Positions 6,492-30,800 of a DNA stretch of 52,846 bases are shown in pieces; position 1 is the stretch's first letter; the number at the start of each line of letters is the position of its first letter. Under the pieces are notes generated by a model. That model was not told where the DNA came from. It saw nothing but the letters and a program-made list of their open reading frames with translations, and made no database searches. This stretch comes from an uncultured Verrucomicrobiota bacterium (lineage in GTDB: Bacteria > Verrucomicrobiota > Kiritimatiellia > CAIQIC01 > CAZMXS01). The stretch spans positions 1-52,846 of the forward strand of contig CAZMXS010000029.1 in NCBI GenBank assembly GCA_964570325.1. The letters are read 5' to 3'. A program made the translations under genes and the position numbers.

Positions 6492-7715
6492 TTACAGTTT
6501 GGCGCTCAAGCTGATCCCGAACAAGTGCGCGTGGCCATCGGTGAACTCGGAGTCATAAACCCCCTCCTCCGGCCGCGCATCTATGTGGCGGCCGAGAATG
6601 TCAATATAGCTATACGACAGGTCGAGGGTGAACTGCTTGACCGTGTAGCCCGCGCCGATATTGTAAATGCGCCGGTCATTCGCCGGGACCATGTAGTCGG
6701 TCGTGCGGCCGGGATCGGGCGTATCGTCATAAATGAACCCGACCCGCAAGGCCAATTGCTCGGTAGCCCAATACTCGAGACCCGTCTGGTAACGCCACAC
6801 ATCGTGCCAGTCCTTCTTGCTTTCGGTGGATTTGACGCCCAACACCGTCGGATCCTGGTAATTAACCTGCAGCGAGTCATAAGAGCTCCAACGCGTGTAC
6901 ACACCGCCCACCTCGAAATTGACGCGCTTGACCGGCTTGAAATTGGCGCCCAGGAAAATCATGTCCGGCAGGGTCACCGAGCCATCGGCATCCGTGCTCC
7001 GGACCTGAATGTCCGCCGTGCCGGAGATATTTTGGCGAATCTGGCTCTGGTAGGCCGCGCCGAGGTCAACCCACTCGAACGGCGCATAGCGCAGACCGAA
7101 ATTGTAGCCGTAGCCATAGGAGTCGCCCTTCAGTTTGAAGTTCAGATCCTGTCCGGCCAGGTAAGGCAGCTTGCGCTGGAGTTTGAGATCAAACCACATG
7201 GCGGAGACCCCCGCCGCAGCCGTGAGTTCGTCGGTCAGCTTGAGGCCGAGATTCGGGTTCAACGTCAAGGTTTTGATTTCCGCATCGTAGCTGTTGTAGC
7301 GGCCCGGCCAGTTTTCATCGAACTCCGTGCCCAGGCCAAACCGGGAATACAGGCCGACACCCGCCACAATCCGGTCCTTGAGCGGATAGGTGGCGTAAAT
7401 ATGCGGCGGCACCCAAACGTTGTCCTCGCTCTTCGTGGTTACCGTTCCGGCCGGCGTCCGGGTCTTCACTTTGGTCGAAGGCGCAATAATTGTCGCGCCC
7501 GCCATGGCGGACGGATTGGTGATGTTGGCAATGCCGGCTGGGTTGTAGTAAATGGCGGACGGATCATCCGCCTTGCCGGTCATGGCCGACCCCAATGCAT
7601 TGCCGCGAGCGCTGCCCTCATACAGCGCAAAGCCTGCGCCCAACGACGCCTGCGCGGCACCTAAACACAATGCGGCGCCGCTTATCAAGATGCGAACCGT
7701 CTTTACTCCGCTCAT
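6492..7715 (-). CDS. Outer-membrane transporter of the FadL/OmpP1/TodX family
   Basis: Signal peptide; N-terminal 'GFALYEGSARGNALGSA' hatch motif characteristic of FadL family; C-terminal beta-strand ending in aromatic/Leu. Confidence 0.75.
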   Translation of the reverse strand: MSGVKTVRILISGAALCLGAAQASLGAGFALYEGSARGNALGSAMTGKADDPSAIYYNPAGIANITNPSAMAGATIIAPSTKVKTRTPAGTVTTKSEDNVWVPPHIYATYPLKDRIVAGVGLYSRFGLGTEFDENWPGRYNSYDAEIKTLTLNPNLGLKLTDELTAAAGVSAMWFDLKLQRKLPYLAGQDLNFKLKGDSYGYGYNFGLRYAPFEWVDLGAAYQSQIRQNISGTADIQVRSTDADGSVTLPDMIFLGANFKPVKRVNFEVGGVYTRWSSYDSLQVNYQDPTVLGVKSTESKKDWHDVWRYQTGLEYWATEQLALRVGFIYDDTPDPGRTTDYMVPANDRRIYNIGAGYTVKQFTLDLSYSYIDILGRHIDARPEEGVYDSEFTDGHAHLFGISLSAKL

Positions 7716-9543: not shown

Positions 9544-10344
9544 TCACCAGAAGGTGTAAGATGCCTTGGCAATGATGTTCATATCCTCGGCGCCGGTGTT
9601 GACCGCCCCGCCGTGGACTGAAAACACAAGCTGTTCGGTTGCCTTGTAGCTCGCGCCGCCCATGTAATAAACGGGGTTGTCGCCGCTATCGTCGGCATAT
9701 TCGTCCTTGGCTTCCTGGTTCGTCGCGCGCACTTCGCCCATGAGCGCAAACTCGGGGCTGATATCCCAGATAATCCCGCCGCCGAGCGAGGCCACATTAT
9801 CCTTGTAGTTTCGGTCCTTGGAACCGATCGTATAAGCCCCATCCACAATAAAGTGCAGAATGTTGCCCATGTAGAACAGATCTTCGACCTGCGTGCCGAC
9901 AGCCATGCCGAAGGTAGTGACTGTCTGGCCCGCGCCCAACCCCTTGTTCTCATTGCCGGAGGGAAAACTGATGTCGGCATACGGGATGATCCATGGGTAG
10001 CGGAAAATATCCTCGTAGGCCCGCAATTCGGCGCCAAAGCCAACATCGCCGAGGCCCCAGTGACTCTCGCCGACATTGGGCTGGTGCTGCCGGATCGGCA
10101 ACTCGGCGGTCAACGCCAGCTTGTCCAACGCGCCATAGCGCAGGTAGGGAACCTCATAATAGTCATCGTAAGCCTTGTATTCGCGGTACATGAAATAACC
10201 GCCGGTCTCCAACTGCCCCTTATCGGGCAACTTGTTTTCCTTGACCAGGAACGTGCGCATCGGCTCCGCGCCGACGGAAACCGCAACCAAGGCAGCCGCA
10301 AGCGCCGCCACACTACCCTTGAGAAAATCCGGCCTATGCATCAT
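9544..10344 (-). CDS. Outer-membrane beta-barrel protein (MetA/phenol-degradation-pathway-like porin family?)
   Basis: Signal peptide, alternating amphipathic beta-strand pattern, C-terminal 'SYTFW' aromatic terminus. Confidence 0.55.
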   Translation of the reverse strand: MMHRPDFLKGSVAALAAALVAVSVGAEPMRTFLVKENKLPDKGQLETGGYFMYREYKAYDDYYEVPYLRYGALDKLALTAELPIRQHQPNVGESHWGLGDVGFGAELRAYEDIFRYPWIIPYADISFPSGNENKGLGAGQTVTTFGMAVGTQVEDLFYMGNILHFIVDGAYTIGSKDRNYKDNVASLGGGIIWDISPEFALMGEVRATNQEAKDEYADDSGDNPVYYMGGASYKATEQLVFSVHGGAVNTGAEDMNIIAKASYTFW

Positions 10345-11497: not shown

Positions 11498-12351
11498 ACA
11501 TCGAAATGCTCGATAAGGCTCAGCAGTTCGTGAAGCAGCGCTGGCCGGAGGCCCGGCCGGATTGCGGGCTGGTGCTCGGCTCCGGTTGGAGCGAAGTGGC
11601 TGAGGCGTTCGCCATTCGCGACACCCTCGCCTATGACGACATTCCCGGCCTCGGCGCGCCCGGCGTCGCGGGGCATCATGGTCGGCTGGTCTGGTGTGAA
11701 ACCGCCGGGTTGGAAACCTTCGTCTTCCAAGGGCGCCGGCATTGGTATGAGGGCGAAGGTTGGACGCCCATCGCGCTGCCGCTCTACTTGTTGAAACAGG
11801 CCGGAGCCACCCGGGTCTGCCTGACCAATGCCGCCGGCGGCATCAACCACGCATTCAAGCCGGGCGACCTGATGATCATTGACGATCACATCAACCTGAT
11901 CGGCTCCAATCCGTTGATCGGACCCCGGCAGCCCGCCTGGGGGCCGCGTTTCCCGGACATGTCCCGCGTGTATGACTCCAGCCTGCGCGCCGCGCTTGAG
12001 CGCGCCGGCCGGGCCATCAACATCACGCTGCAACACGGCGTGTACCTGGCGGTTTCGGGACCATCCTACGAGACCCCGGCCGAAATCCGCGCCTTTCGCG
12101 CGCTCGGCGCGGACGCCGTGGGCATGTCCACCGTCTCTGAGGCCATCCTCGCCAACGCGGCCGGCCTGCGCGTGGTCGGGCTGTCCTGCATCACCAATCT
12201 GGCAGCCGGCGTAACGGACACTCCGCTCTCGCACGAGGAAGTCACCGCCACCACCCAGCTTTCCATGTCCGCCATGAAGGCCGTCATCATGCAGCTTTGG
12301 AAAGAAATGGCCCATGAGCCGGCCAGCGGCGCCCAACCGGGCCCGCGATGA
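11494..12351 (+). CDS. punA: Purine nucleoside phosphorylase (trimeric PNP/MTAP family)
   Basis: 'LVLGSGWSE', 'HHGRLVWCE', 'FQGRRHWYEGEG', 'GMSTVSEAILA' PNP family-I motifs; start overlaps upstream stop (ATGA). Confidence 0.85.
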   Translation: MNIEMLDKAQQFVKQRWPEARPDCGLVLGSGWSEVAEAFAIRDTLAYDDIPGLGAPGVAGHHGRLVWCETAGLETFVFQGRRHWYEGEGWTPIALPLYLLKQAGATRVCLTNAAGGINHAFKPGDLMIIDDHINLIGSNPLIGPRQPAWGPRFPDMSRVYDSSLRAALERAGRAINITLQHGVYLAVSGPSYETPAEIRAFRALGADAVGMSTVSEAILANAAGLRVVGLSCITNLAAGVTDTPLSHEEVTATTQLSMSAMKAVIMQLWKEMAHEPASGAQPGPR

Positions 12352-13172
12352 GCACGCCCAGCCCATTGTTCGTCTGCCCGCCGGACTATCACACGCACAC
12401 CGAGCTCTGCGGTCACGCGCAAGGCCGGCCGCTGGATTATCTTCAGGCCGCCATCCGTAAGGGAATCGGCGAAATTGCCTGCACGGACCACTGTCCCTCT
12501 TCCGTCGGTTACGATCCCGAGCACCGCATGGTCGTGGAACAACTCGCCCATTACCGCGAGTGGGTCGCCGCGGCACAGCATGCGCCGGAATGCCGGGTGT
12601 TGTATGGAATCGAGGCGGATTATTATCCCGGTTGCGCGGCGGATGTTCAACCGGTGCTCGCCAGCCAGCCCTTCGATGTGGTGCTCGGCTCCATCCACAT
12701 CGGCGAGTTCTGGGAATATGAAAAACACATCCGGCAAACCCAAGCGGATCCCGCCTATCTGACCGGCGTCTGGCGGGACTACATGCGCCTGCTCCGCGAC
12801 CTGGTCGCCAGCGGCATGTATGACGTCATCGCCCATCTGGACCTGCCCAAGCGCTCGGGCGTGCGTCCGCCCGAGACCCTGCTGCGCGAATGCGTCCTCC
12901 CGGTCCTGGATGCCATCGCGCACGCCGGAATGAGCATCGAGATCAACACCTCGGGATTGCACCATCCAGTCAAGGAAACCTACCCCTCGGAGCAAATCCT
13001 AGCCTGGTCCCGCGAACGCCAAATTCCGATCGTGTTCGGTTCCGACGCCCACCTGCCCGAGCGCGTCGGCTCGGATTTTGAAACCGCCGTGCAAATCGCG
13101 CGCGCCGCCGGCTACACCGAATACGCGCGTTACCAACTGCGCCAAATGACCCGGCATCCGCTGCCGACGTGA
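12348..13172 (+). CDS. PHP-domain histidinol-phosphatase family protein (HisJ-like)
   Basis: 'DYHTHTELCGHA', 'ACTDH', PHP-domain His/Asp metal ligands; ATGA overlap with punA. Confidence 0.8.
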   Translation: MSTPSPLFVCPPDYHTHTELCGHAQGRPLDYLQAAIRKGIGEIACTDHCPSSVGYDPEHRMVVEQLAHYREWVAAAQHAPECRVLYGIEADYYPGCAADVQPVLASQPFDVVLGSIHIGEFWEYEKHIRQTQADPAYLTGVWRDYMRLLRDLVASGMYDVIAHLDLPKRSGVRPPETLLRECVLPVLDAIAHAGMSIEINTSGLHHPVKETYPSEQILAWSRERQIPIVFGSDAHLPERVGSDFETAVQIARAAGYTEYARYQLRQMTRHPLPT

Positions 13173-13276
13173 ACGCGCGGCGGCACAACACCCGGCCGCC
13201 ATGGGCAGGGATGAACCGCCGGGCCGTCTGATCGGCGCAATCCGCCCGCGCATCCGCCAGCGTGAGCGAGCGGCGT

Positions 13277-14488
13277 TTACCGCAATGTCTGATTCAATTG
13301 CAGGATGGGCAGCAGAATGGAAAGGGAAATCAGCAGGACAAACAGGCCGACGCCGAGAATCAGCAACGGTTCAAGCAAGGTCAACGCGCGCGTAATCCAG
13401 CGGTCCCAGTAGTGCTGGCAGCGCGCGGCGGCGCTGTCGAGCAGTTCCTCCAACCGCCCGCTCGCCTCGCCGGCCTGGATCCAACCGGCCAGGGTCCCGG
13501 CCAGCGGATAGATGTCGCGCACCGCCTCCGCGAGACTGCGGCCCTGCCGGACCTCCTCCGCCGCCGCCACCGCCCGCGCCGCCACCCAGGCGCTGCCCGT
13601 CGCCCGGCCGGCCAGCGCAATCCCCTCCACCAGTTGCACGCCGCCGCGCAGCAGCAGGGACAAGGTACGCGCGAAGCGCAGCCCGACCAGCGCGGTATAG
13701 CTTTTTCCAATGATTGGAAAATCAAACCAGCGCCGGTTCCAACGCGCGCGCAGTTCGGGATCCTGGCGCAGGCGGTTGCGCAGCCACCAGCCGCCGGCCA
13801 CCGCGGCCAGCAGCAGCGGCGCCAGCAAGGGAAGGAGCCAGCGACCGGCGAACATCATCGCCCGGGTAAGCCACGGCAGCGGCAGGCGCGTCTCGGCCAG
13901 CATCCGTCCGATGGACGGCACCAGCACTCCCAGCATGACCAGCACCACCACCACGGCAACCGCCAACACGATGCACGGATAAAACAAGGCCGTGCGGACC
14001 CGGTCCGCAACGCGCAACTGGTCCTCCATGAACTGCGCCAACCGTTCAAGCACGGCGTCAAGATTCCCGGCACGCTCCCCGACCTCGATCGCCGCCTGCT
14101 CATACGGCGTAATCCGATCGCCGACGCGGGCCAGCGCGGACGCAAAGGAGGAGCCCTCGCGCAGCCGGTCGCGCACACCGGCCAGCGCCGGCCGGTGCGC
14201 GCCCATCTCCGGGGCATTGATCACGACATCCAGCGCCTGGGCCAACGGCAGGCCGGCCTTCAGCAAGGCGCCGGCCTCGCGATAAAACATCGCCCGCGCC
14301 TCCGCGTCGAAAGCGGTTCGCAAAAAGGGCCGGGCCGGCGTCGGCCGGGCGCCGGCGGGCGTCAGTTGTTCCGGCAGAATGCCCAGGGCGCACAGTTTTT
14401 CGCGCGCCTCTTTCGGGTCCAGCGCCTCGATCAGGCCGCGCGCCGCCCGGCCGGAATGCTCATATCCCCGGTATTCAAATGTCTTCAT
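13277..14488 (-). CDS. gspF: Type II secretion system inner-membrane platform protein GspF (PilC/GspF family)
   Basis: Two GspF-type repeats, three TM segments, N-terminus 'MKTFEYRGYEHSGRAARGLIEALDPKEAREKL'. Confidence 0.9.
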   Translation of the reverse strand: MKTFEYRGYEHSGRAARGLIEALDPKEAREKLCALGILPEQLTPAGARPTPARPFLRTAFDAEARAMFYREAGALLKAGLPLAQALDVVINAPEMGAHRPALAGVRDRLREGSSFASALARVGDRITPYEQAAIEVGERAGNLDAVLERLAQFMEDQLRVADRVRTALFYPCIVLAVAVVVVLVMLGVLVPSIGRMLAETRLPLPWLTRAMMFAGRWLLPLLAPLLLAAVAGGWWLRNRLRQDPELRARWNRRWFDFPIIGKSYTALVGLRFARTLSLLLRGGVQLVEGIALAGRATGSAWVAARAVAAAEEVRQGRSLAEAVRDIYPLAGTLAGWIQAGEASGRLEELLDSAAARCQHYWDRWITRALTLLEPLLILGVGLFVLLISLSILLPILQLNQTLR

Positions 14489-16172
14489 GCGCGCGGCCCA
14501 CGGCCCGCAGCACTTCAGCCAGGGAGGTCTCGCCCCGGCCGGCTTTTTCCAGACCGTCCACGATCATTTCCTGCATCCCCTCCCCGCGCGCCAACCGGCG
14601 CAGTTCCGTTGCCGGGCAACCTCTCCGCACCGCATCCTGGATGGCCGGGGAGGCGTTGATCAATTCGTAGATTCCGGTCCGGCCGCGATACCCGCCCAAG
14701 CATTGCGCGCAACCCGTCGCGCCCCACAACGGCCGGTCCTTCAACCGCGCGGCGAAAGCGCCCAGCGCCGCGCGTTCATCCGGCGTCGGCGCGGCCGGCC
14801 GGCGGCAGTGCGGACAGAGCCGCCGCACGAGGCGTTGGGCCAGGCAGGCCCGCAGGGCGGAGGCCAACAAGTAGGGCGCGACGCCCATGTCCACCAGGCG
14901 CATGACCGCGCCCGCTGCGTCGTTCGTATGTAACGTGCTAAACACCAGGTGGCCGGTCAGCGAAGCGCGCACCAGGATTTCGGCCGTCTCCAAATCGCGG
15001 GTCTCGCCGACCAGGATCACGTCCGGATCCTGGCGCAGGATATGCCGCAATCCCTGGGCGAAGGTCAGCCCGATCTTCGGCTTGACCTGCATTTGCCCGA
15101 TGTCCGGCAACTGGTATTCAATGGGGTCTTCGATCGTCAGGACGTTGCGGTGCGCCGTGTCGAGTTCGCGCAGTGCGGCATAAAGCGTGGTGGTCTTGCC
15201 GCTGCCGGTCGGACCGGTCACCAGCACAACGCCATGGGGTTCAGCCAGGATAGCGCGCAAGCGTTGCAGGAGCCCGTCCGGCAGGCCCAGTTCGCCCAGC
15301 GGCAGCAGAACGGATTCGCGGTTGAGCAGGCGCAGCACCACGCGTTCCCCCTCGGCCACCGGAATCGTTGAAACCCGGATGTCCAGTTCGCGCTCGCCCA
15401 GGCTCACGCGGGCGGCGCCATCCTGCGGCAGGCGTTTTTCCGCGATGTCCAAGTGCGCCATCACCTTCAGCCGCGAGATCAGCGCGGCCTCCATGCTTTT
15501 CGGGGGCGCCGTCTGACCATAGAGCCAGCCGTCAATCCGATAGCGAATCTGCAAATGATCCGCGTAGGGTTCGATGTGGATGTCCGAAGCGCGCGCCTTG
15601 ACGGCCTCCAGCAAGATCAGGTTGACCAACTGCGTCACCGGAGCCTGGTCGGAAACGCGCAGCAGGTCATCATCGCGCCGCGCGGGCGCCGTTGGCCGGG
15701 GCTGTTCCTCCGCCAGATCCTTCAGCAGGTCGCGGGCCGAGCCGGTCTTGCGGAAATAGCACTCCTCGATGGCCCGGCTGATCTCCTGCCGCGGCGCCAG
15801 CACGGGCGTCAACTCCTGCTCCAGCAGCAGTCCGAGGTCGGCCAGCGCCGTGACGTTGACGGGGTCGTTGGTCAGGGCGCAGATTCGGCCGGCCATGCGA
15901 ATCGGCAACAGCCCGTGGGCGCGGGCCCATTCGACCGGAAGCGCGGTCACCAGCGCGGGATCGAGCAACTCCGGCGCGACGGCGAGCAGCACTTCGCAGC
16001 CGAACTGCCGCCCGAGCGCGCTCAACAGGTCAGATTCGGAAATGAGGCCGTCCGCAACCAGTATTTCGCCGATCCGGCGGCGTGGCGCGGTCTGCCGCTG
16101 CCGGTCCAGGGCCGCCGCCACTTGGGCCGGCGTCACCCGGCCGGATTGGACCAGAATCTCGCCCAACAACAT
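14475..16172 (-). CDS. gspE: Type II secretion ATPase GspE
   Basis: N-terminal GspE_N domain, Walker A 'GPTGSGKTTT', Asp/His boxes, C-terminal tetracysteine CPHC...CAQC zinc motif specific to GspE; overlaps gspF by 14 nt. Confidence 0.9.
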   Translation of the reverse strand: MLLGEILVQSGRVTPAQVAAALDRQRQTAPRRRIGEILVADGLISESDLLSALGRQFGCEVLLAVAPELLDPALVTALPVEWARAHGLLPIRMAGRICALTNDPVNVTALADLGLLLEQELTPVLAPRQEISRAIEECYFRKTGSARDLLKDLAEEQPRPTAPARRDDDLLRVSDQAPVTQLVNLILLEAVKARASDIHIEPYADHLQIRYRIDGWLYGQTAPPKSMEAALISRLKVMAHLDIAEKRLPQDGAARVSLGERELDIRVSTIPVAEGERVVLRLLNRESVLLPLGELGLPDGLLQRLRAILAEPHGVVLVTGPTGSGKTTTLYAALRELDTAHRNVLTIEDPIEYQLPDIGQMQVKPKIGLTFAQGLRHILRQDPDVILVGETRDLETAEILVRASLTGHLVFSTLHTNDAAGAVMRLVDMGVAPYLLASALRACLAQRLVRRLCPHCRRPAAPTPDERAALGAFAARLKDRPLWGATGCAQCLGGYRGRTGIYELINASPAIQDAVRRGCPATELRRLARGEGMQEMIVDGLEKAGRGETSLAEVLRAVGRAHEDI

Positions 16173-16176
16173 GGGG

Positions 16177-18138
16177 TCACTTCCTTCGCAACGGGACCGG
16201 CTGCTCGACCTGCGCTTCGAAGTTGGTGGCCGGATTGACCAAATCCATTTGTTTCTCGAGGCGCTGCCGCATGGCCTGCGCCACCTTTGCGTCGGTCACG
16301 ATATGCGGAGTGACAAAGATCAACAGGTTGGTGCGCACTCGCTTGGTGGAACGGTTCTGGAACAGCCAGCCGATCAAAGGCAGGTCGCCAAGCAGCGGAA
16401 TCTTGGAGAGCGTTTTGACGGAATCCTCCCGAATCAGGCCGCTGATCGCCACCGTGGCGACATCCGGCACCGTGACCGTCGTGGAAACCTCGCGCTTGGC
16501 GATCGTCGGCGTATACTTGCCCGGTTCGCCCTCGTCAACGATCGCCTCAATGCTGGGATTCAACTCGATCTGGACCTGCCGGTCCGGGTTCACGTGCGGA
16601 GTCAGTTTGAGCTTGATGCCGACGTCCATGCGGTCAATGTTTTGGATGTAGTCGCGCGCCGTGCCGGAGCCGCCTTCAACCGTGGATTTAAGGATCGGGA
16701 TATTCTCCACGACGCTGACGCTGGCCTCGGTGTTGTTCTGCGCCCAGAGCGGGATGTTGGATAGGATCTTGACGTCTTTGTTCACCGCCAGGGCGTTGAT
16801 CAGGAACGGCACCAACGGGCGCTCAACGCCGTCCTTATCCTTGTACGTCCCGGTGGCAACGCCTAACGAGAGACCCTGTGGAAAAAGGCCCGTGGTCACC
16901 ATTTTCATCAGCTCGTCAGTTTCGCCAGGCCGGCTGCGGCCGATCACCGTGGTACTGTCCTCCGTCGGGATTTCCACCGCCGACCACTCCACGCCGAGAT
17001 CAAGATTTTTATTCAGGCCAACTTCCGCAATCAGCACTTCGACCAGCACCTGTTGCGGAATCTGGTCGAGCTGCTTGACCAGCTCCTGCACATATTGGAA
17101 ATCCCGTGGCGCGGCATCCACAATCAGGGCGTTGTTCTCAATGCTGGGCTCGATCGCGATGCGCGCGTTCTGGTCCTTGGGCGCGGTTTTGGCCAGCAGG
17201 GCGTTGAGGCTCTTGGCCGCGTCCTCCGCGGACAGGTAATTCAGGAAGATGGCGTTCAGCCGGCCATAACCAGAAGGCGGTTCGACATCCACCAGTCCAA
17301 TAATGCGCCGGATTTCGCCGATCTGAATCTGCGTGCCGACCACAACCAGGCTGTTGGCTTGTGGCGCCGGCACGATGACGACGTCGGCCGGCAGCGCGCC
17401 GCCACCCTCGACGGATTGCTGGATGTGGCGGCTGATCTGGCTGTTGGCGGAGAGCATGCCGCGCACCGCGGCGTTAAGCTGATCCGCGAGATCATCGGCG
17501 GAAGCATACTTGAGCTTCAGAATCTCCACCGCGCGCGACGCGCCGGGCCGGTCCAGTTCCGCGACAATTTGCTCGACCCGGGCAATGCTCTCAGCGGTGT
17601 CGGTGATAATCAAATGGTTGGTCGGCCCGAACGCGGAGAGCGCGCCCGTCTTGCCGCCGCGCACCATCGGCTCCAGCAGCTTGCGCAGTTCGACGGCGCT
17701 GATGTGCTCCAGCCGGATCACCTTGGTGATCAGGCCGCGCGCCGGGCGGGTCTCCTCCGCGCCAATGACCGGGACCACCTCGACCGCCTTCTCGGGCAGC
17801 GGCACCACCGTGGAGACGGCGCCCTTTTCGATCACCGTATAGCCGCTGGATTCGATGATCGAGAGGAACAAGGGAAAAACCTCGTCGGCGGGAATCTGCG
17901 CCGGGGTCACCACGGTCACCTTGCCTTTCACCCCCTCGTCAATCGTGAAGCGCCGTCCGGTCATTTCGCCGACCAGCTTGGCCAGAACCCGGATATCCAC
18001 CTGGTCAAAGTTAAAATTGACGTAGGCGCGGCCGCCGGGGGCGGCGCCCCCCGCCGGGGCGCCCGCCGGCGCGCGGGCCCCGCGCCCCGCGGCCAGCGCC
18101 AGCCACAGCCCGACCCAGGCCTGCCGACGGAAATTCAT
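16177..18138 (-). CDS. gspD: Type II secretion secretin GspD
   Basis: Signal peptide, N0/N1-N3 domains, C-terminal secretin domain ('GGL...SKIPLLGDLPLIGWLF'); start ATG overlaps the lpxA stop (ATGA). Confidence 0.85.
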   Translation of the reverse strand: MNFRRQAWVGLWLALAAGRGARAPAGAPAGGAAPGGRAYVNFNFDQVDIRVLAKLVGEMTGRRFTIDEGVKGKVTVVTPAQIPADEVFPLFLSIIESSGYTVIEKGAVSTVVPLPEKAVEVVPVIGAEETRPARGLITKVIRLEHISAVELRKLLEPMVRGGKTGALSAFGPTNHLIITDTAESIARVEQIVAELDRPGASRAVEILKLKYASADDLADQLNAAVRGMLSANSQISRHIQQSVEGGGALPADVVIVPAPQANSLVVVGTQIQIGEIRRIIGLVDVEPPSGYGRLNAIFLNYLSAEDAAKSLNALLAKTAPKDQNARIAIEPSIENNALIVDAAPRDFQYVQELVKQLDQIPQQVLVEVLIAEVGLNKNLDLGVEWSAVEIPTEDSTTVIGRSRPGETDELMKMVTTGLFPQGLSLGVATGTYKDKDGVERPLVPFLINALAVNKDVKILSNIPLWAQNNTEASVSVVENIPILKSTVEGGSGTARDYIQNIDRMDVGIKLKLTPHVNPDRQVQIELNPSIEAIVDEGEPGKYTPTIAKREVSTTVTVPDVATVAISGLIREDSVKTLSKIPLLGDLPLIGWLFQNRSTKRVRTNLLIFVTPHIVTDAKVAQAMRQRLEKQMDLVNPATNFEAQVEQPVPLRRK

Positions 18139-18914
18139 CAGCGTACAATCCCCCGTTCCGATGCGCGCACGAAGCCGATCAGATGCCGAATTTCCGCAAC
18201 CATATCCAGCTCGGTCTCCATCCGGGCCAGGGCCTGGCTCGTGGACAGCCCTTCGCGGTACAGGAGCTTAAAGGCCTTTTTAAGTTGCGCCTGGGAATCT
18301 TCGGGCACACTGTGGCGCTTCAACCCCACGCTGTTGAGGCCATGGATGCCGATCGGATTGCCGTCCGCCATCATGAACGGCGGCACGTCCTGCGTCGCCT
18401 TGGAGCAACCGCCCATGATGCTCAACCGGCCGATCCGCACGAACTGGTGGATGCCGCAGAGCCCGCCCACCACCGCATGATCCTCGATGATGACATGGCC
18501 GGCCAGCGTGCCGCAGTTGGCAATGATCACGCCGTTGCCGACTTGGCAATCGTGGGCGATGTGGGCGTAGGCCATGATATGGCAATCGGCGCCGACCACG
18601 GTCACATCGCCGTCGTTCGTGGCGGCGTTGACCGTCACATATTCGCGGATGGTCGTCCGGTCGCCGATCTCGACGCGCGGCCGGCCGCCCTTGTATTTGA
18701 GGTCCTGCGTCTGCATTCCGAGACTGGCAAAGGGAAACACCGTGCAATCCGCGCCGAGGGTGGTCCAGCCGTCCACACAGACGTGGGATTGCAGCCGCGC
18801 GCCGCGTCCAATCCGGACGTGCTCGCCAATCACGCAATAAGGGCCGATCTCCGCGCCGTCACCGATCTGCGCGCCGGGGGCGACAATCGCGGTGGGATGA
18901 ATCCGGGCCGACAT
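18138..18914 (-). CDS. lpxA: Acyl-ACP--UDP-N-acetylglucosamine O-acyltransferase
   Basis: Hexapeptide-repeat left-handed beta-helix, 'MSARIHPTAIV...GPYCVIG', LpxA C-terminal helical domain. Confidence 0.95.
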   Translation of the reverse strand: MSARIHPTAIVAPGAQIGDGAEIGPYCVIGEHVRIGRGARLQSHVCVDGWTTLGADCTVFPFASLGMQTQDLKYKGGRPRVEIGDRTTIREYVTVNAATNDGDVTVVGADCHIMAYAHIAHDCQVGNGVIIANCGTLAGHVIIEDHAVVGGLCGIHQFVRIGRLSIMGGCSKATQDVPPFMMADGNPIGIHGLNSVGLKRHSVPEDSQAQLKKAFKLLYREGLSTSQALARMETELDMVAEIRHLIGFVRASERGIVR

Positions 18915-18920
18915 GGGGGC

Positions 18921-19355
18921 TCAGTCCTCGCTCGCGCCGAACATCATGTCCGCCTCGCAGGCCAACTGGCCATCCACGAGGATCACGCCGTGCACCTTGG
19001 ACATGTTCAGCCGGGTTCGTAGCAGCGTGATTTCCATCCGCATGACATCGCCGGGGTGGATGGTCTTACGGAACTTGGCATTGTCCACGCTAAGATAATA
19101 GGCGATCCGTCCCTCCTTGCCGTGCATTTTGTTCAGCAGGATGCCGCCGGTCTGCGCCATGGCTTCGAGTTGCAGCACCCCCGGCATGATCGGCCGGCCC
19201 GGGAAGTGACCCTGGAAGAACGGCTCATTCATCGTCACGTTTTTGATCCCGACAATGCGCGTCTTGAAATCGCATTCGACAATCCGGTCCACCAGCAGCA
19301 TGGGATATCGGTGCGGCAGGATTTTCATTATCTCTTCACATTCGAATATAGCCAT
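18921..19355 (-). CDS. fabZ: 3-hydroxyacyl-ACP dehydratase
   Basis: 'ILPHRYPMLLVDRI', 'FFQGHFPGRPIMPGVL' hot-dog fold motifs; start taken at the internal ATG (MAIFECEE); 6-nt gap to lpxA. Confidence 0.93.
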   Translation of the reverse strand: MAIFECEEIMKILPHRYPMLLVDRIVECDFKTRIVGIKNVTMNEPFFQGHFPGRPIMPGVLQLEAMAQTGGILLNKMHGKEGRIAYYLSVDNAKFRKTIHPGDVMRMEITLLRTRLNMSKVHGVILVDGQLACEADMMFGASED

Positions 19356-19459
19356 CGGCGTTTCCCTTTCGTTAAAAACCGCGCCGGCCTCGGCAAAGAA
19401 CAGGCCGTAACAGCCGCAACATATAACAAACCCCGTGCGGGGCTGGAAACCGAAATTAC

Positions 19460-21511
19460 TCAAACCTCCACGATCTCAACGGGACATTCGGGGATGGAAG
19501 CCAGGAACTTGCGCCCGTAATACTTGTTAAGGATGCGGCTGTCGAGAATCGCTATGATGCCCTCGTCCGTAGCGGTACGGATTAACCGACCGACGCCCTG
19601 CCGGAACTTCAAAATGGCCTCCGGCAGCGAGTATTCCTTGAACGGTTCACCGCCGCGCGACTTGATCCGGTCCATGCGGGCCTTGACCACGGGCTGATCC
19701 GGCACGGCAAACGGCAGACGGCAGATGATCACGTTGCTCAACGCCTCGCCGCGCACGTCCACGCCCATCCAGAAGCTGTCCAGGCCGAACAGCACCGCCG
19801 ACGCGCCCGCCTTGAACTTCTCCAACATCGCATGCCGCCCCAGTCCGGCGCCCTGCACATACACGGCCAGCCCCTGCCGCTCGAAATCGTCGCGCACCGC
19901 GTCGGCCACCTGGCGCATCAAGCGGGCGCTGGTGAACAGGACAAAGGCGCGTCCGCGGGTCTTGTTCACGAAGAAGCGCACGCCGCGCGCGGCCGCTGCG
20001 GGAAAGGCGGCGGCGTCATTGGGGTCCGGCATGTCGCGGGCGATATAGATGCGCATCTGGCGCGAAAAGTTGAAGGGCGACCCCAGGCACAACGTGGCGC
20101 ATCTTTCAGCCCCGACCCGGCCGCGAAAATAATCCAGGCTGCCGGCGACCGCCAGCGTGGCGCTGGTCATAATCACGCAGGGGATGCGCTCGAACAGGGA
20201 CTTGGCCAGCATCGGCCCGACCTCGATCGGGGCGGAATAGAGGACGGTCTGCTGGCGGCGCTTGCCCTCGCTCTCCACCCAATAAACCTGGTCGGGCCAG
20301 GATTGCTCCAGAAAGGCCTCCAGTTCGTCCTTCATTTCGGCGCCCAACTGGCGGGCGGAGTTGAGTTCGGCGCGAATTTCCTCCTGCTCGCCCAGGCCGT
20401 CCACGATCCGGCGCAGCACCGCGGTGACGCGGCCGATCTGCTGCGGCAGGTTGGTCGGCAGATCCAGCGGCGCGGCCACCACCCGCTGCGTTTCCTCCGT
20501 TGTGAACGCCGCCCAGTCGCGCACCAGCCCAAAGAACCGCTCCGCCTCCTCCCAGGCGCGGGTCACTTCGTTGGCCGCCTCGCCATGCCGGATCAGCTTG
20601 AGCAGGCCCTTGCCCGTGTCGGGGGTGTACAGGCGCCGCAACCAGTACTCGAACATGTAATGCGAAATGCGCATGCCCAGGTGGTCGGTGGCAACGCCTT
20701 CCACCATGTGGGCCTCGTCCAGCACCAGGCTGGTGTAGTTCGGCAGGAAGGCCGCGCCCTGCGCGCGCAGTTTCAGTTCGGAGAAAAGCAGGTAATGATT
20801 GACGACCAGCAGATTGGCGGTCCGCATCTGGGCGCGCGCGCGCGTTAGAAAGCAGGCGCGATAGTGGCGGCAGCGGACCCCGTCGCAATTGCCGCGCTCC
20901 GCGCAAACGGCGCCCCAGACGTCGGCCGGCGGCTGCTCGGCCAGATCCTGGAGGCTACCCTCCGCAGTCTGGTCAGCCCAGGCCCGGATCCGGTTCAATT
21001 CGTCCTGCTCCGCCGTGCGGAACAACTGCCCGCTGTTGCGCAAAGCCAGCGCCAGGCGCCGCCGGCAAAGATAGTTGGAACGGCCCTTCACCAACACCGC
21101 CCGGAAATCCACGCCCAAGTGCGCCTGAAGGAACGGAATGTCCTTGTACATTAACTGTTCCTGCAAGGCGATGGTGTAAGTGGAAACGACAACCTGGGCC
21201 TTGCGGGCGGCCGCGGCCAGGATCAGGGGCACCAGGTAGGCGTAACTTTTGCCGACGCCGGTGCCGGCCTCGACGGCCAGGTGCTGCGGGCCCTCCAGAG
21301 CGGCCGCCACCGCCGCGGCCATCTCCCGTTGCTGCGGGCGCGGCTCAAAAGGAAAGGGGGCGCCGACGCAAGCCTGCTGGAGGCGCCCGCCCGGCCGAAA
21401 AAAAGCATCCACCGCCTCGCGAATACGAAGAGGCTCCTCCACCGGCGCAATCGGTTCCTGACGCGGCGCAATCATCGGACGGTTTGTAGCACGCCCGCCG
21501 CGCCGGCACAA
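19460..21511 (-). CDS. dinG: DinG/Rad3-family ATP-dependent DNA helicase
   Basis: Walker A 'GTGVGKSYAYLVP', 'VLDEAHMVE' DEAH box, C-terminal helicase motifs. Confidence 0.75.
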   Translation of the reverse strand: MCRRGGRATNRPMIAPRQEPIAPVEEPLRIREAVDAFFRPGGRLQQACVGAPFPFEPRPQQREMAAAVAAALEGPQHLAVEAGTGVGKSYAYLVPLILAAAARKAQVVVSTYTIALQEQLMYKDIPFLQAHLGVDFRAVLVKGRSNYLCRRRLALALRNSGQLFRTAEQDELNRIRAWADQTAEGSLQDLAEQPPADVWGAVCAERGNCDGVRCRHYRACFLTRARAQMRTANLLVVNHYLLFSELKLRAQGAAFLPNYTSLVLDEAHMVEGVATDHLGMRISHYMFEYWLRRLYTPDTGKGLLKLIRHGEAANEVTRAWEEAERFFGLVRDWAAFTTEETQRVVAAPLDLPTNLPQQIGRVTAVLRRIVDGLGEQEEIRAELNSARQLGAEMKDELEAFLEQSWPDQVYWVESEGKRRQQTVLYSAPIEVGPMLAKSLFERIPCVIMTSATLAVAGSLDYFRGRVGAERCATLCLGSPFNFSRQMRIYIARDMPDPNDAAAFPAAAARGVRFFVNKTRGRAFVLFTSARLMRQVADAVRDDFERQGLAVYVQGAGLGRHAMLEKFKAGASAVLFGLDSFWMGVDVRGEALSNVIICRLPFAVPDQPVVKARMDRIKSRGGEPFKEYSLPEAILKFRQGVGRLIRTATDEGIIAILDSRILNKYYGRKFLASIPECPVEIVEV

Positions 21512-21529
21512 AAAAGAAATCGGCGGGCT

Positions 21530-21871
21530 TTAGCCGATGGCCGCCTGGCCGGTTTCGCCGGTGCGGATGCGGATGCATTCCGGCAGGTCCAGGACGAAGA
21601 TCTTGCCGTCGCCAATATTGCCGGTGCGCGCGCCGCGAATGATGGCCTCCACGGTCGGCTTCACGAAATCCTCGTTCACCGCGATCTGCAGCTCGACCTT
21701 CTTCAGCAGGTTGATCTCCTCCTTGGCGCCGCGATAGCTTTCGCGGTAGCCCATTTGCTGGCCGCAGCCAATGACGTTCAGCGCCGTCATTTTGTGGACG
21801 TTGGCCGCCAACAGGGCTTGCTTCACGTCCGTGAGTTTTTCGGGTTGGATGATAGCCAGGATCAGTTTCAT
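21530..21871 (-). CDS. glnK: Nitrogen regulatory protein P-II
   Basis: 113 aa; T-loop '[13 protein letters not shown]', C-terminal 'RIRTGETG'; 21 nt downstream of amtB. Confidence 0.9.
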
Positions 21872-23771: not shown

Positions 23772-26700
23772 CTACGGCAGTGTCACGCGAAGGCGGTAGC
23801 TGCGCGCGGGAGCCGCGCCGTCATTGGTATAGCTAAGCCAACCGCCAGTGCCCGCCACATTGGTCCAGATTGGCGCCCAGTTCAGGTTATTGCTAAAGGC
23901 GCCCAAGCTCGCCTGCAGATGATAGCGGCGATTGGAGGAACTGCCCCATTGGATCAGGCCCGCCCGGGCATCCGGACTAACGCCGGCCTTAAACACCAGC
24001 CAGGAATTGGAGTCCATCGGATCGGTGTCCCAAAAGAACTCATCATGATTGGAATAGCGGTCGCCGTCGCTGTTCTGCCCGGCGTCGGCGGCATTGGTCG
24101 GCGATAATCCGTTGCGCACCTCCCAGCCGTCCGGCATTTCGTCGCGGTCGCCGTCGGGATCGAGCGGGCTGCAGCCGTACGCGGCCTCGCCGGAATTCGC
24201 CAATTCGTCCGCGTCATAATCGCCGCTCGCGCCCAGCACGACAATGGAGCGGGCGGCGGCGGCGCCAAGGTTGCCGTAACCGTCGCCGGCCCAGACGTAA
24301 ACGGTGTTCACCGCCTCCACGGTGGGATTCGCCATAATCGCGGCCAACGCATTCGTCCAGGCGCCATTGGTTGTGCCGGCGCCGTTGGCCAGGCTGTAAT
24401 AATAGCGCGCCACGCCCACGCCTTCGTCCGTGAAATTCGACCAATTGACCGACAGGCTGGCATCGAACGTGAAGGCCGCGTCGTCCCCGATGTGCACCAC
24501 GGCAGCGGCGGCGGACGGAGGCTGATTGTCGAGCGTGAACACCGCCGCGGTCACCGCCGGCGCCGCCAGCGCCAGGTTGTCCGCGATCACGCGCACGCGC
24601 ACATTGGTACTGACGGCATTGGTCGGCAGGCCGCTGTTGCCGGCGGCCCGCGTGTCCCAGGTCAGCGCCAGCCGGTTGGTGCCGGCGGCCCCGCCGCCAT
24701 TGGTCGCGGCCACGCCGCCGATCTGGTAGTAGCACTGGGTCGGGGCCAGCGCCGCCGCCGCCGTGCCCGCGGCGGCGATCATTCGCACACCGAACCAGGC
24801 GGCGCCGCCGTTGGTGCTGGCCTCCACGCGGAGCATGCCCGGCCGCCCGCCGGCATCATAGTAAGTGTTGCTGATCGTCACCAGGCCGCGGCCGTCGGTC
24901 GAAGTCTGCGCGGCAAACGGCAGCGCCACCGCCGGGACAGCGGCCCGATACAACTCGGCCCAATCCCACCAAACCGAGCCACGCCCCGCGCCATAGTTTT
25001 GCGCGCCGACCAGCCAATAGGCGTTCAACAGTTTGTTGGAAAGCTGGTGATATCCGGTGGCCGCGCCGGAATCGGTCGTAATCGCGATGGGCTGGCCGCC
25101 CGCGTCCGCGAACCGCACGGCGTAACGGCCGTCGCCCAGCAGGACGCGCATCTGGATGCCGCCGGTGGCCGTCAGATAGCGGGAAACATTGGCGATAGTC
25201 CCGACGAAGCGCTCGGTGCCGTCACTGGACGGCGTCTCCGTCTTGGTGAACAGCGCCATGGTCAGCGTGTCCGCTCCGGAATCATAGCGGCCGTGCAGGT
25301 TCACCGCATTGGTGGCCGCCCAGCCGTTGATAAATTCAGAGCAAACGCTTAATACCGCGCGCAGATCCTCGCCGGACTGCGCGGCATCCACGCGGATCGT
25401 GCTGAGTTGCGCGGCAAACACATACCATTCGCCGTCGGAATCACTCCAGGATCGCGCCTCATTCAACAGGTAGCCGGCCGTCTGCCAATCGCTGCCGGGC
25501 GGCTTCACCCGGAAACGCCCGCCCGCCTCCTCGAACTCCGCGCCGCCCCAGTCATTGTAGCGCGTCCAGGCATTGCTGGTGGCGCCATCGTCGAAATCGT
25601 CGCGCACGGCGAATGTTGAGCCGACCGGCGCGTTCGTGTACAGGAAGACAAATCGGATGTTGGGCACGTTGTTGGTCAGCGTCCGCGCGCCGCTCCCCGG
25701 CTGCGTGCCGGTCCAGGTGGTCGGATCGGTGGACACATTGGCGGTGTTGCCCAACGATTGGTTGGTGGCCGTCTTGGAGTACCGCGCGTAGCCCAGGGGA
25801 GGGCGCTGCTTGGCGCTGCCGTCTATGGAAAAATCCACCAGCAGATTGCTGGCGCCGTTGTAGGCGAAGTTGGTTGCCAGCTTGAAATAGTACCAGCCGA
25901 CCGCGCCAATGTTCAGATTGGATTCGAACACCGTTGTCCAATCGGCCACGGCCCACTGGTTGGACAGGCTGTTTAACGGCGTGTGCGCCAGCCGGATCGT
26001 ATATTCCGGCAACGTGATCGTCGGATACCCGCTGACGTAGATCGCCAGCGAGGTAATGACGCCGGACTTGCCGATCTGGCCGGCCAGGTACAGCGCCTGC
26101 AAACGGGTTTTCTTCTCATTGGTGTCCAGCGGATAGCGCCATGTGGTCAGCGTGTTCGTCCCAACCTGCGCGACGTTCGGCGCGTTAGTCTCCGGCGGCG
26201 GCGGAATGTGCGGGTTGGTGGCGACCCCCGTGTAGACGCGCGTCCGGTTCCAGTACACTTCGCCGCGGCCGTCCCAGACGTTGGCGGCGCCCAGCAGATA
26301 TGAGCCGCCGTCCAACACGTGACCCAGGGCGTGCACGCCGGTGCTGGACCCGCTCACGGGCGTGATGGTCACGCCGTTGGTGCGGTAATTGGCGCGGACG
26401 TAATAATTGGTCGTGCGCAGGACGAATTGCAGCTCGAGGCCATTGGTATCCGCGTAGGCGGACACGTTCGGGATCGTCCCCTTGAAGTGCGAATAGCCCC
26501 AACTATAGAGCCAGTTGGTCTTGGTGTAGAACTCCACGGTCAGCGAGTCATTGGCCTGGTCATAGCCGCAACGCAATGACGCCGCGTTGGAGGAATTCCA
26601 CGGATCGTACCAGACGCTGCCGGAGATGAAGGACTGAATGAGAAAGACATCCAGACCCGCGGCGTCGTTGCTGGTGCTGGCGCGGGTGACGTTCACCGTG

Positions 26701-27863: not shown

Positions 27864-30800
27864 TCAAGGCACGACCAGCCGATAATAACCGCGCGGCTGG
27901 CCCGCAATGGTATTGGTCACCACCAGCTCTTCGTCCCGCGCGGCCGTGATCAGGGCGCCGACATCCTGCCAGGCCGCCGGCAGATTGGTGGCCATTTGCA
28001 CGCGATAGGTGACGCCGGATCCCGCCTGCCAGGCGAGCATGAAGCCTGGCGGATTGAAGATCGGCGCGGCCGCGCCAACATGCAGATAGGAACCGCCGTC
28101 CCAGGGATCCGTGCGCGCGCGATACTCGGACAGGTTCGGATAGCGGTCACCGTCCGAATCCAGCGCGGCATCGGCGCGCAGGCGCGGATTCAGGCCATGC
28201 GCCAACTCCCACTCGTCGTTCATCCCGTCGCTGTCGTCGTCCGCCTCCGCCCCAAACGGCACGCCGTTGCTGTTTGAATCCACCACCGCCTGCAAGGCGT
28301 CCACATACACGGTCGCCGGACCCGTCACGGGCAGGTCTATCTGCAGATACAGGTTCAACCACACCGAACTGTCATGCCGCGTCCAGTCATACGGGATCAC
28401 CAGTGTGTGCCAGGCCCCGTCGTTCGGGCAGGCGTTGGTCCCGAGGTTGTCCCAACCCGTCTCGCTGCTCTGCATGATCAGCCGGAATGACGCCCACGCC
28501 ACATTGGTCGGCGTCCGCGCTCGCAGATACACGCAATTATAGTTGGTCCACGTCAACGCATCCTGCCGCGCGCTGAAGTCCGCCATCACGGTCTTGCCGT
28601 AAGGCGACGACGAATTGTCGAAGTCCACGCGCACTCCCGCCCGTCCCTCGTATGGCTGGTTCGTGTCCAGCGTCACGGCGAACGGCGCCCCACCCCCGCC
28701 CCAACCCTCCAGCGAGCAGTTCCACCCGTACACATATCCCCGCAAATCGTCGGCATGCAGAAAATGCCGGCGCCCATTCTTCATCGCATTCAACCATCCG
28801 TAGTACGCCGACTGCACGGCCGCGTTCGAGGTCACCGTCCAGTTCACCCAGTCGCTTTGCGCCTCGGCCTCGATCTTATACCAGTTGAACCAGTTGATCG
28901 CCTTCAGCATCGGCAACTGCTCGGCCACGTCCCGCGCATTGGCGTTATCGCCGCCGATATTGAACAACTGCTCCATCCACCGGTTCTTGATGTATAATTC
29001 ATCGTTCGTCTGCTGCGGCGGCCAATAGGGATTCCCTGAACTCGGACACGACGGCCGGTAATAACCCGCGGTTTCCGGCACCATCATCGGCTTATCCCGG
29101 CCCACCGCCCAAATTGCATGGAAATCCGGGTTCCAGGTGTTGTCGCCGTTCGGCCCGTTATAGTTGCCGGTGATCTGCGACCAGAATTTATTCGTCTCCG
29201 GCCAGCAGTTGTACCACCACGGGTACACCGTCCCCCAATGGTACAGCGTCATTCCCACCCAATCCACATACGCGTCGCCCGGATAAAACGGCTCGTATGG
29301 ATCGTCCTGCAGCACGCCGCCGTCATTCTTCAGGTATCCGTCTCCATTGCTGTCCAGCAGATACCAGTCCGCGGCCGATCCGTAGCCCGCCACGTAGGTC
29401 GCCTTGGTCATGTTATTGTACGCCCCATAGGGATAGGCGCCCGCCACGTTCGGCGCCCACAGCAAGGCGGTGTTGGTCGCCGTCGCGTGCACACTGCTTG
29501 CCAGCAGGCGGAATTTCTCCCGATACAACGCCGGCCGCATCTTCCATGCATACCAGTCCCCGTTCATCTCATGCGCAAACCGGATCATGATCGGCACACC
29601 GCGGCCGTTCCAGTACGCGCACCAGTTCGCAAACGACTGACAGTCGTTGCTCGTGATGCTCCCCAACCCCGCCGTCGGCTCCAGCGTCGCCACGAACATG
29701 CCCCCCACCTCGCGCACCAGCGCGATATGGTTGCTCAACGCCAGGTAATGCGGCGCGTCCACCGGGAACACCGTGAAGTCCACGAACGCCGTATGGTCCC
29801 AGCCCACCCGCGCGTTGAACTGCAACGGCGACTCCTGGCCCCAATCGAGGTTCGCCCCGATCATGCACCCGGCCGCCGGCTCCAGGCGCGCCAGCGCCGA
29901 CACGGCCTGGGTCGTCAGGTTCAACGCGTCACACTTGAATGCCGCGTTGAGCCCCTGGCCCTCCGCCGCAATCACCGCCCGCACCTTCACCGTGTTCGTC
30001 GGCGCCCAGCCCTCCACCTCGTAATAGGTCCAGTCCGGCCCCACGCCCGAGACAACGGCAATGTTGGTCCCAATCATGTGGTCGCTGCCGTCATAATACT
30101 CCAGTTTCAGATACAGCCCGCTGAAGGTGTAGTTCGTGTCCGCGCAAAAATAGCCCGACAGCCAATACTTTGCCGCTCCGCTGCGCGCCACATCCTGATA
30201 CCAACCGCCGCTGGCGTTGGCGCCACCCCAGTTATGCAAGCTCGCCAACCACCCGTCCCCATCGTAGGAGCCCCAATTCTCCCGCGTCGCGTCGCCCCAC
30301 CGATTCCAATACTGGGCCGCCGCGTTCGCGTTGGTTGTCCCATCCGGCCCGTAACGGAAACCACCGTTCTGCAACAGCGTCGGCGCCTCGGGCGGCAGCC
30401 CACCCGTCGTCGAAAACGTGATACTGGTCGCCGCCGCCGCCAGGCATGCGCCGTTTTCCACGGCCTGCCCGGCGAAAGCGAAATACACCGTCTGGCTGTA
30501 GTCCAGCGCGGGGGTGATCGTGAAGGTGGTCTTGGCCTCGTTGACGCTGACGCCAAATGGCACCCACGCGCCTCCCGCGTGGCTCAAGCGGACCACCACC
30601 AGATTGCTCAAGGCCGCCGTCCCGTTCAGCAGCGGCAGGCCATTGGTGTGGCGCATCGCCGCGGAAAAGGCGACTTGAATCGAACTGCCCGGCGCGACGC
30701 CGGTCGCGCCATCGGCCGGCGCCACCGTGTAGGGCGGCACGTACACCAACGGCGTCCCCGCCTGCGTCAGTTCGGCGTTGTCGAACTCCGCCTGGTTGGA

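Follow-up and report, generated by a model that had tools for sequence, protein, structure and literature searches.

Type II secretion systems (T2SS) of reduced or otherwise unusual form have been described outside the canonical proteobacterial examples. Non-canonical systems with incomplete gene sets have been linked to secretion in Chlamydia and Cytophaga (PMC6617341), and for the mitochondrial system, miT2SS, a core of GspD, GspE, GspF and GspG only has been proposed (PMC8134430). In the class Kiritimatiellia, the description of the Kiritimatiella glycovorans type strain goes no further than noting the presence of "a type II secretion system" (PMC5148204). The present analysis concerns a block of five genes, fabZ-lpxA-gspD-gspE-gspF, in contig CAZMXS010000029.1 of an uncultured member of this class (GenBank assembly GCA_964570325.1); the whole 52,846-nucleotide stretch is referred to below as the window. 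The block is probably a five-gene envelope operon, a signature of Kiritimatiellia, in which a T2SS-type core is coupled to LpxA.

LpxA catalyses the first step of lipid A synthesis, and in E. coli its gene lies in the envelope cluster bamA-skp-lpxD-fabZ-lpxA-lpxB. Members of the Kiritimatiellia are abundant anaerobes that break down sulfated and other complex polysaccharides, and their very large enzymes must be exported; the export route is, to our knowledge, essentially unstudied. No description of an lpxA-gspD linkage was found in the literature on Kiritimatiellia T2SS or on lpxA, fabZ and gspD, and an operon that joins a lipid A cluster to the core of a T2SS is apparently undescribed, the component systems being already known.

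Composition and junctions of the block

The five genes are same-direction open reading frames (ORFs) of the minus strand, spanning positions 19355 to 13277. The first, fabZ (18921..19355), starts with ATG and encodes a 3-hydroxyacyl-acyl carrier protein (ACP) dehydratase of 144 amino acids (aa); it is followed by lpxA (18138..18914), encoding the acyl-ACP--UDP-N-acetylglucosamine (UDP-GlcNAc) O-acyltransferase (258 aa), gspD (16177..18138), encoding a T2SS-type secretin (653 aa), gspE (14475..16172), encoding the assembly ATPase (565 aa), and lastly gspF (13277..14488), encoding the inner-membrane platform protein (403 aa). By direct reading of the sequence, 6 nucleotides (nt) lie between fabZ and lpxA, gspE starts after a gap of 4 nt from gspD, and gspF overlaps gspE by 14 nt (14475-14488), all as given in a preliminary description of this DNA. 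The overlap of lpxA and gspD that it had also reported is real, but it is not the four-nucleotide ATGA described there: the minus strand reads TGATG from 18140 to 18136, with the stop TGA at 18140-18138 and the start ATG at 18138-18136 sharing 1 nt. ATG 18138 is supported as the gspD start because a normal Sec signal peptide, MNFRRQAWVGLWLALAAGRGARA, results. Shine-Dalgarno-like purine runs lie ahead of fabZ, lpxA, gspD and gspE, among them AAGGGA 7-12 nt 5' of the fabZ start and, for gspD, GGGGGA inside the 3' end of lpxA. The GC content of third codon positions is uniform over the whole block (0.79-0.83), and there is therefore no sign of recent insertion.

Identities were assigned by Pfam and NCBIfam profile searches, with the model cutoffs applied. 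FabZ (PF07977, 1e-35; TIGR01750, 185 bits vs. a cutoff of 155) and LpxA (TIGR01852, 329 bits vs. 231; Hexapep and Acetyltransf_11 domains) both exceed their equivalog cutoffs, and fabZ is followed directly by lpxA as expected in a lipid A cluster; the lpxD expected upstream and the lpxB expected downstream are replaced by a DinG/YoaA helicase gene and by gspD, respectively. GspD scores 417 bits with TIGR02517 (cutoff 351), and its domains run in the order Sec signal peptide, N0, three Secretin_N and Secretin. The PilQ model TIGR02515 gives only 204 bits, under its cutoff of 284, no AMIN domain was found in the Pfam scan, and the AMIN domains and single N1 of PilQ-type secretins are thus not the pattern seen here. 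Among solved structures the closest are XcpQ (5wln) and E. coli GspD (5wq7), both of them secretins of a T2SS, and judged by its sequence the secretin is of the T2SS type. GspF carries two T2SSF domains (Pfam, 176 bits), and its scores with the PilC, HofC and ComGB models are at most 150 bits, half of what it reaches with the GspF model. GspE consists of an N-terminal MshEN region, a T2SSE core (PF00437, 444 bits) and a tetracysteine motif, CPHC...CAQC.

Conservation of the block in Kiritimatiellia

The best GspD homologues are found in Kiritimatiellia metagenome-assembled genomes (MAGs), some of them labelled Verrucomicrobiota or Lentisphaerae by their submitters, at identities of 58-67% and in one case 98%. 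Our comparison set consisted of 80 loci, one genome per species, with GspD 52-66% identical, in which the window proteins were searched by tblastn; the cultured K. glycovorans and Pontiella lie outside this set. Among the 76 loci that are informative, having enough sequence upstream of gspD, lpxA stands directly upstream of gspD in 73, and the complete fabZ-lpxA-gspD-gspE-gspF order is present in 61 of the 80, most of the others ending at contig ends. In 58 of the 73, the earliest in-frame start of gspD is at -4 (ATGA/GTGA), -1 (TGATG) or 0 from the lpxA stop, and in 69 it is at most 17 nt from it; lpxA/gspD is the tightest of the four block junctions across the relatives. L021 and L027 do not have gspE and gspF downstream, yet lpxA and gspD are joined in these loci too. 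The three informative loci in which the linkage is absent are L071 and L074, from rumen lineages, and L080, a second secretin copy. The synteny comparison proposed in the preliminary description has thus turned out in its favor, with the same order and tight junctions recurring to an extent that is more than chance.

The flanks, in contrast, turn over. Upstream of the block, dinG is found in 6 loci, the closest relatives only, and an ExbD-like gene in 24; downstream, hisJ is found in about 10 and waaA in 18. This persistence of the block between varying flanks argues that it is a selected, class-wide envelope operon rather than a set of chance neighbors, as far as comparative sequence data can tell. 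In the waaA group (L037, L043-L046, L048-L050, L052, L053, L055-L057, L060, L062, L064-L066; e.g. L037:7037-8344, plus strand), which forms one subclade, the Kdo (3-deoxy-D-manno-octulosonic acid) transferase gene waaA/kdtA starts within about 10 nt after gspF, giving fabZ-lpxA-gspD-gspE-gspF-waaA, so that the secretion genes are enclosed in a lipopolysaccharide (LPS) biosynthesis operon, with lipid A genes on one side and LPS-core genes on the other. The window itself lacks waaA.

A conserved ORF that follows gspF in nine loci was considered as a missing component of the machine and rejected, being an Arg/Ala/Gly/Pro-rich, wrong-frame artefact of high GC content at a site where the real gene is waaA. 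The second secretin, L080 (L080:9815-11893, plus strand), is a stand-alone GspD-like protein of 52% identity without a nearby ATPase or platform gene; its neighbors are a gene for a response regulator and an efflux cluster of TetR/OEP/HlyD type, and it belongs to MAG STD1_155, which has the full block in L075.

More distant relatives were taken from an exhaustive search of a representative library, and their contigs were then inspected. L085 and L086 (GspD 46% and 45% identical) keep fabZ-lpxA-gspD-gspE-gspF. In L087 (43%), lpxA and gspD are about 6 kb apart, with toxin-antitoxin and defence-like genes between them, and L088 (40%) has gspD-gspE-gspF without lpxA. In L089 (36%), gspD-gspE-gspF are preceded by a weak T2SSC-like gene and a TPR gene, and L084 (39%, a Verrucomicrobiota MAG) has a lone gspD. 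From this pattern it follows that the lpxA link marks a clade at about the level of Kiritimatiellia, and that gspD-gspE-gspF triads without adjacent pseudopilin genes are more widespread.

The insert of L087 (L087:1-9043) contains SLFN/AlbA_2, LRR and DUF4143 genes and a PIN toxin-antitoxin pair, and gspD is followed there by mnmA, not gspE; judging from this gene content, the locus seems to be the ancestral block in disrupted form. The representative library also yielded dozens of proteins of 3,400-5,500 aa (P0260-P0390) that match the secretin query in 13-30 stretches, best near the C-terminus, and that look from these matches like giant secretin-related proteins.

Expression, the secretion machine and alternative readings

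A promoter-like motif is present in the 104-nt dinG-fabZ spacer (19419..19450, minus strand), about 65 nt 5' of the fabZ ATG. It consists of TTTCCA (19449-19444), an 18-nt GC-rich palindromic spacer and TGT-TATATG, resembling an extended -10 element (TATATG at 19425-19420). In an alignment of the window with its six closest relatives, those that likewise have dinG upstream (L001, L004, L005, L007, L008 and L030), the block GTTT(C/T)C ... TTTGnTATAnG is conserved and the rest of the spacer is divergent, and we infer that the motif is the operon promoter. A consensus scan of 12800-21800 gave no sigma-70-like promoter, and the scanner called the palindrome terminator-like, not promoter. Terminator-like matches in the same range numbered 14, against 7.2 +/- 3.6 in shuffles, those inside genes being weak consensus matches, and no intrinsic terminator is evident after gspF (z = 0.06). 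Three of the four junctions are too tight to hold a promoter or terminator, which supports a single unit. The single fabZ-lpxA-gspD-gspE-gspF transcription unit of the preliminary description thus finds support in the junctions, the scans, the conserved block and the recurrence of the lpxA/gspD overlap in the class.

The N-terminus of GspE contains two tandem MshEN-type motifs, LLGEILVQSGRVTPAQVAAALDRQ and RIGEILVADGLISESDLLSALGRQ, encoded by gspE codons 2-56 (16005..16169, minus strand), and the region scores 55 bits with NF053729, against a cutoff of 38. The published motif is a tandem pair of 24-residue units, RLGxx(L/V/I)(L/V/I)xxG(L/V/I)(L/V/I)xxxxLxxxLxxQ, with a 5-residue spacer, and a homologue in P. 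aeruginosa is a known case of a T2SS ATPase that binds cyclic di-GMP (PMC5013675). Motif II of GspE (residues 33-56) conforms to this pattern; the spacer is 7 residues long vs. the published 5. Binding of cyclic di-GMP by the GspE N-terminus is predicted from these motifs.

We would picture the working of the operon as follows. Transcription would most likely begin in the spacer upstream of fabZ and read through all five genes, since the junctions leave no space for signals. Ribosomes ending at the lpxA stop would begin again at the gspD start that overlaps it (TGATG in the window, and ATGA or GTGA in most relatives), which would link production of the secretin to that of the first lipid A enzyme; the arrangement hints that lipid and secretin are made in step. 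The products are, by their sequences, on the one hand FabZ and LpxA, cytoplasmic enzymes drawing on one R-3-hydroxyacyl-ACP pool, and, on the other, three core parts of T2SS type: an N0-N1-N2-N3 secretin, an assembly ATPase of PilB length and a GspF-like platform. The machine would polymerize prepilin-type proteins encoded elsewhere as dispersed single genes and expel Sec-exported, folded periplasmic proteins such as polysaccharide-degrading enzymes, and in this lineage its activity may be gated by cyclic di-GMP through the MshEN-type motifs. It probably serves the export of the large hydrolases of these polysaccharide degraders. By analogy with the E. coli cluster, the linkage would have been retained to co-regulate an abundant outer-membrane multimer and the outer-leaflet lipid that surrounds it.

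A number of observations weigh against this picture. The rumen lineages L071 and L074 have lost the lpxA-gspD linkage, and gaps of 60-215 nt separate the two genes in L035, L059, L070 and L075; coupling is therefore not obligatory. A promoter within lpxA may exist. Among the window ORFs scanned with Pfam there is no GspC, GspL, GspM, pseudopilin or prepilin peptidase (GspO). GspF scores 298 bits with TIGR02120, under the cutoff of 424, and GspE scores 601 bits with the GspE model TIGR02533, under its cutoff of 630, over residues 76-557; on sequence comparison the ATPase is intermediate between the GspE and PilB families, about equally near both. As for the proposed gating, MshEN motif I (residues 2-25) is degenerate: Leu replaces the first Arg, and a hydrophobic position is occupied by Arg. 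The N-terminal extension of the ATPase aligns in about half of the related loci, the others beginning to match at residues 38-70.

Pseudopilins deserve particular attention, since their absence from the locus had led the preliminary description to propose a reduced T2SS. That only gspD, gspE and gspF are present holds for the window and for +/-10 kb around the block in the 80 relatives. A six-frame scan for the motif G-F-T-L-I-E followed by a hydrophobic helix gave no credible match in the 52.8-kb window, and the pseudopilins GspG-K, which a T2SS would be expected to encode with the system, are not at the locus; the strict pattern does fit the G-F-T-L-[IV]-E-L N-termini of real Kiritimatiellia prepilin-type proteins. 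The same scan within +/-10 kb of the block in the 80 loci (1.23 Mb) turned up one prepilin-type gene, at L032:3303-3938 (minus strand) next to glmS, and encoding a generic N_methyl protein, not a GspG equivalog. Its family, however, has 1890 matches, including a protein of the cultured K. glycovorans named "type II secretion system protein / Pilin", and all members inspected carry canonical GFTL(I/V)ELLVVIAII N-termini. The genes are isolated singletons in housekeeping neighborhoods, lying by glmS in K. glycovorans and L032 and alone in L082 and L083. Prepilin-type genes being present elsewhere in the class, their absence beside gspF reflects a dispersed organization and not a demonstrated loss; by their sequences, pseudopilin-like substrates for the machine are available in Kiritimatiellia. 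A reduced T2SS is thus not established, canonical prepilin-type genes being scattered elsewhere in the class, K. glycovorans included.

The K. glycovorans prepilin-type gene next to glmS is at L081:10001-10705 (CP010904), and L027 has a gene for a GlmM-like mutase two genes downstream of gspD. These neighbors would make a second, weaker tie of type IV filament parts to the UDP-GlcNAc/lipid A pathway, one that is not universal.

Of the alternatives, the one that survives best is a genuinely minimal T2SS, in which GspD, GspE and GspF would do without GspC, GspL and GspM and be joined by no more than a few scattered prepilin-type proteins, as in the reduced systems of Chlamydia, Cytophaga and miT2SS; we regard this tentatively as a possible but less probable account. 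Besides the lack of C, L, M and pseudopilin genes in the window and the single prepilin-type gene near the block in 80 relatives (1.23 Mb), it is favored by the distant triads of L088 and L089, which also have no adjacent pseudopilin genes, and by the N-terminus of the ATPase, which is of MshEN/PilB type and not the shorter GspE form. That shorter form pairs with GspL. Incomplete yet functional T2SS gene sets are, moreover, documented (PMC6617341, PMC8134430). The absence is local only, however, and divergent GspC, GspL and GspM are hard to detect by sequence; L089 does have a weak T2SSC-like gene upstream of gspD, and the large canonical prepilin-type family, with its 1890 matches, also speaks against so small a machine.

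It is improbable that the three genes instead encode a type IV pilus or other filament machine, used in adhesion, motility or DNA uptake and not in secretion. The ATPase provides most of the case for this. It scores 550 bits with the PilB model TIGR02538 (cutoff 676), which covers residues 3-557; its best full-length matches among solved structures are PilB proteins (Geobacter 5zfr, Myxococcus 3jc8), slightly above GspE structures, of which 4pht aligns to residues 102-558 only; and it has the MshEN N-terminus that MshE and PilB typically carry. UniRef, in addition, labels the scattered prepilin-type proteins 'Pilin'. The other two components point the other way: the secretin has T2SS architecture and exceeds the GspD cutoff, with no AMIN match and a PilQ score of 204 against the required 284, and the GspF model gives the platform double the score of the PilC models. 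No pilM, pilN, pilO, pilP or pilT is found nearby.

Similarly improbable, in our view, is a functional integration of secretin, ATPase and platform with lipid A/LPS assembly that goes beyond co-location. Insertion of the secretin might, for example, need stoichiometric new LPS, or the machine might act in outer-membrane or LPS-linked surface biogenesis. Such integration would account for lpxA-gspD being the junction conserved best, for the addition of waaA to the block in one subclade and for the presence of UDP-GlcNAc pathway genes beside parts of the system. Finally, a purely historical adjacency kept by phylogenetic inertia, with independent expression from a gspD promoter embedded in lpxA, would accord with the tolerance of 60-215-nt gaps, of the 6-kb insertion in L087 and of full separation in L071, L074 and L084, but it is improbable as well, given that the block outlasts repeated turnover of both flanks and GspD divergence down to 45% identity, that lpxA/gspD is its most compact junction, overlapping in most lineages, and that a whole subclade has waaA added to this same block.

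Surroundings and likeness to known systems

Downstream of the unit, whose end it marks, and convergent to gspF, lies a gene for a HisJ-family histidinol phosphatase (12348..13172, plus strand; NF005596, 249 bits), which belongs to a plus-strand group of DUF2225, purine nucleoside phosphorylase and HisJ genes; the same convergent hisJ follows gspF in relatives such as L004, L024, L028, L030 and L032. Upstream of fabZ and outside the conserved block are the DinG/YoaA-type helicase gene (19460..21511, minus strand; NF053712, 574 bits) and an ammonium transporter gene. The remaining genes of the window are of housekeeping type (aspS, hisS, secDF, tgt, ABC ATPases), and Rfam and tRNA scans found no regulatory RNAs or tRNA genes in it.

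The window also encodes three carbohydrate-active enzymes (CAZymes) with Sec signal peptides, of 536, 1292 and 1702 aa, which the preliminary description had put forward as possible cargo of the T2SS. These enzymes are not conserved as neighbors of the operon, whose flanks differ among relatives; their export by the block is suggested solely by the signal peptides, which are not evidence of T2SS dependence. The 1292-aa enzyme is GH16-like, and the 1702-aa enzyme combines a SASA esterase with a GH26-like domain. Their C-termini (23772-24200 and 27864-28400, minus strand) share a module of about 100 aa at 36% identity, with Asp-rich stretches (e.g. DGDRY) resembling calcium-binding repeats and an end of the form ..YRLxV..P; this may be a common anchoring or sorting domain. 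Two more outer-membrane proteins are encoded nearby (9544-10344 and 6492-7715, both minus strand), one a FadL/TodX-family transporter and the other a protein of 266 aa with a signal peptide, no Pfam match and, as is typical of beta-barrel proteins, an aromatic C-terminus (..SYTFW).

The ExbD-like gene of the upstream flank encodes a Kiritimatiellia-specific protein of about 212 aa with a single transmembrane segment and no Pfam match; it is conserved on the fabZ strand, immediately ahead of fabZ, in 24 loci (L012:8053-8697, plus strand, and 23 others: the L009-L042 group, L061 and L072) and is not present in the window. In L012, a MotA/ExbB-family gene precedes it. Its AlphaFold model (mean predicted local distance difference test score, pLDDT, 80) has no significant match in the PDB, TolR ranking second (E = 0.2). 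A GspM- or PilO-like role for this protein is disfavored by the MotA/ExbB-family neighbor and the TolR rank; going by the model, it is probably an ExbD/TolR-like stator subunit.

The five-gene operon favored here offers a concrete and testable case of co-regulation of outer-membrane lipid synthesis with a secretion channel, and it provides a synteny marker for the class Kiritimatiellia. With pseudopilin genes dispersed and GspC, GspL and GspM not evident, it is also a natural system for asking which parts of a T2SS are indispensable.

With the canonical proteobacterial T2SS (Gsp, Pul, Eps, Xcp) the block shares the secretin domains, the T2SSE and tetracysteine regions of the ATPase, the platform with two T2SSF domains and the co-directional D, E, F order. 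Unlike the canonical systems, it has no gspC, gspG-K, gspL, gspM or gspO in the cluster, its ATPase is of PilB length with an MshEN N-terminus, its GspE and GspF scores fall under the equivalog cutoffs, and it is joined to lipid A genes and not contained in a gsp operon of its own. Compared with ATPases of the MshE/PilB/HxcR type, GspE has the same tandem 24-residue N-terminal motifs, above the NCBIfam domain cutoff, and differs in the missing key Arg of motif I, in the 7-residue spacer and in having an extension that about half of the related loci lack or carry in diverged form.

The reduced systems of Chlamydia trachomatis, Cytophaga hutchinsonii and miT2SS resemble the block in having an incomplete set; a working core is proposed to require no more than secretin, ATPase, platform and pseudopilin (PMC8134430). 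The preliminary description had likened the locus to that of Chlamydiae and other bacteria of the Planctomycetes-Verrucomicrobia-Chlamydiae (PVC) group; membership of the class Kiritimatiellia in this group is borne out by NCBI taxonomy, and the resemblance to Chlamydiae proper is loose. In the chlamydial gspD-gspE-gspF arrangement, a pseudopilin-like gene presumably follows gspF, and lpxA-fabZ presumably lie elsewhere. In the window, unlike Chlamydia, no pseudopilin gene is adjacent, and lpxA and gspD meet in an overlapping junction that suggests translational coupling.

The envelope cluster of E. coli provides the other half of the comparison. There, too, fabZ and lpxA are adjacent and stand beside genes for outer-membrane protein biogenesis, and by analogy the same logic of co-regulation may apply. 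The Kiritimatiellia block differs in having neither lpxD nor lpxB, in having secretin, ATPase and platform as partners instead of BamA and Skp, and, in one subclade of the class, in being closed by waaA.

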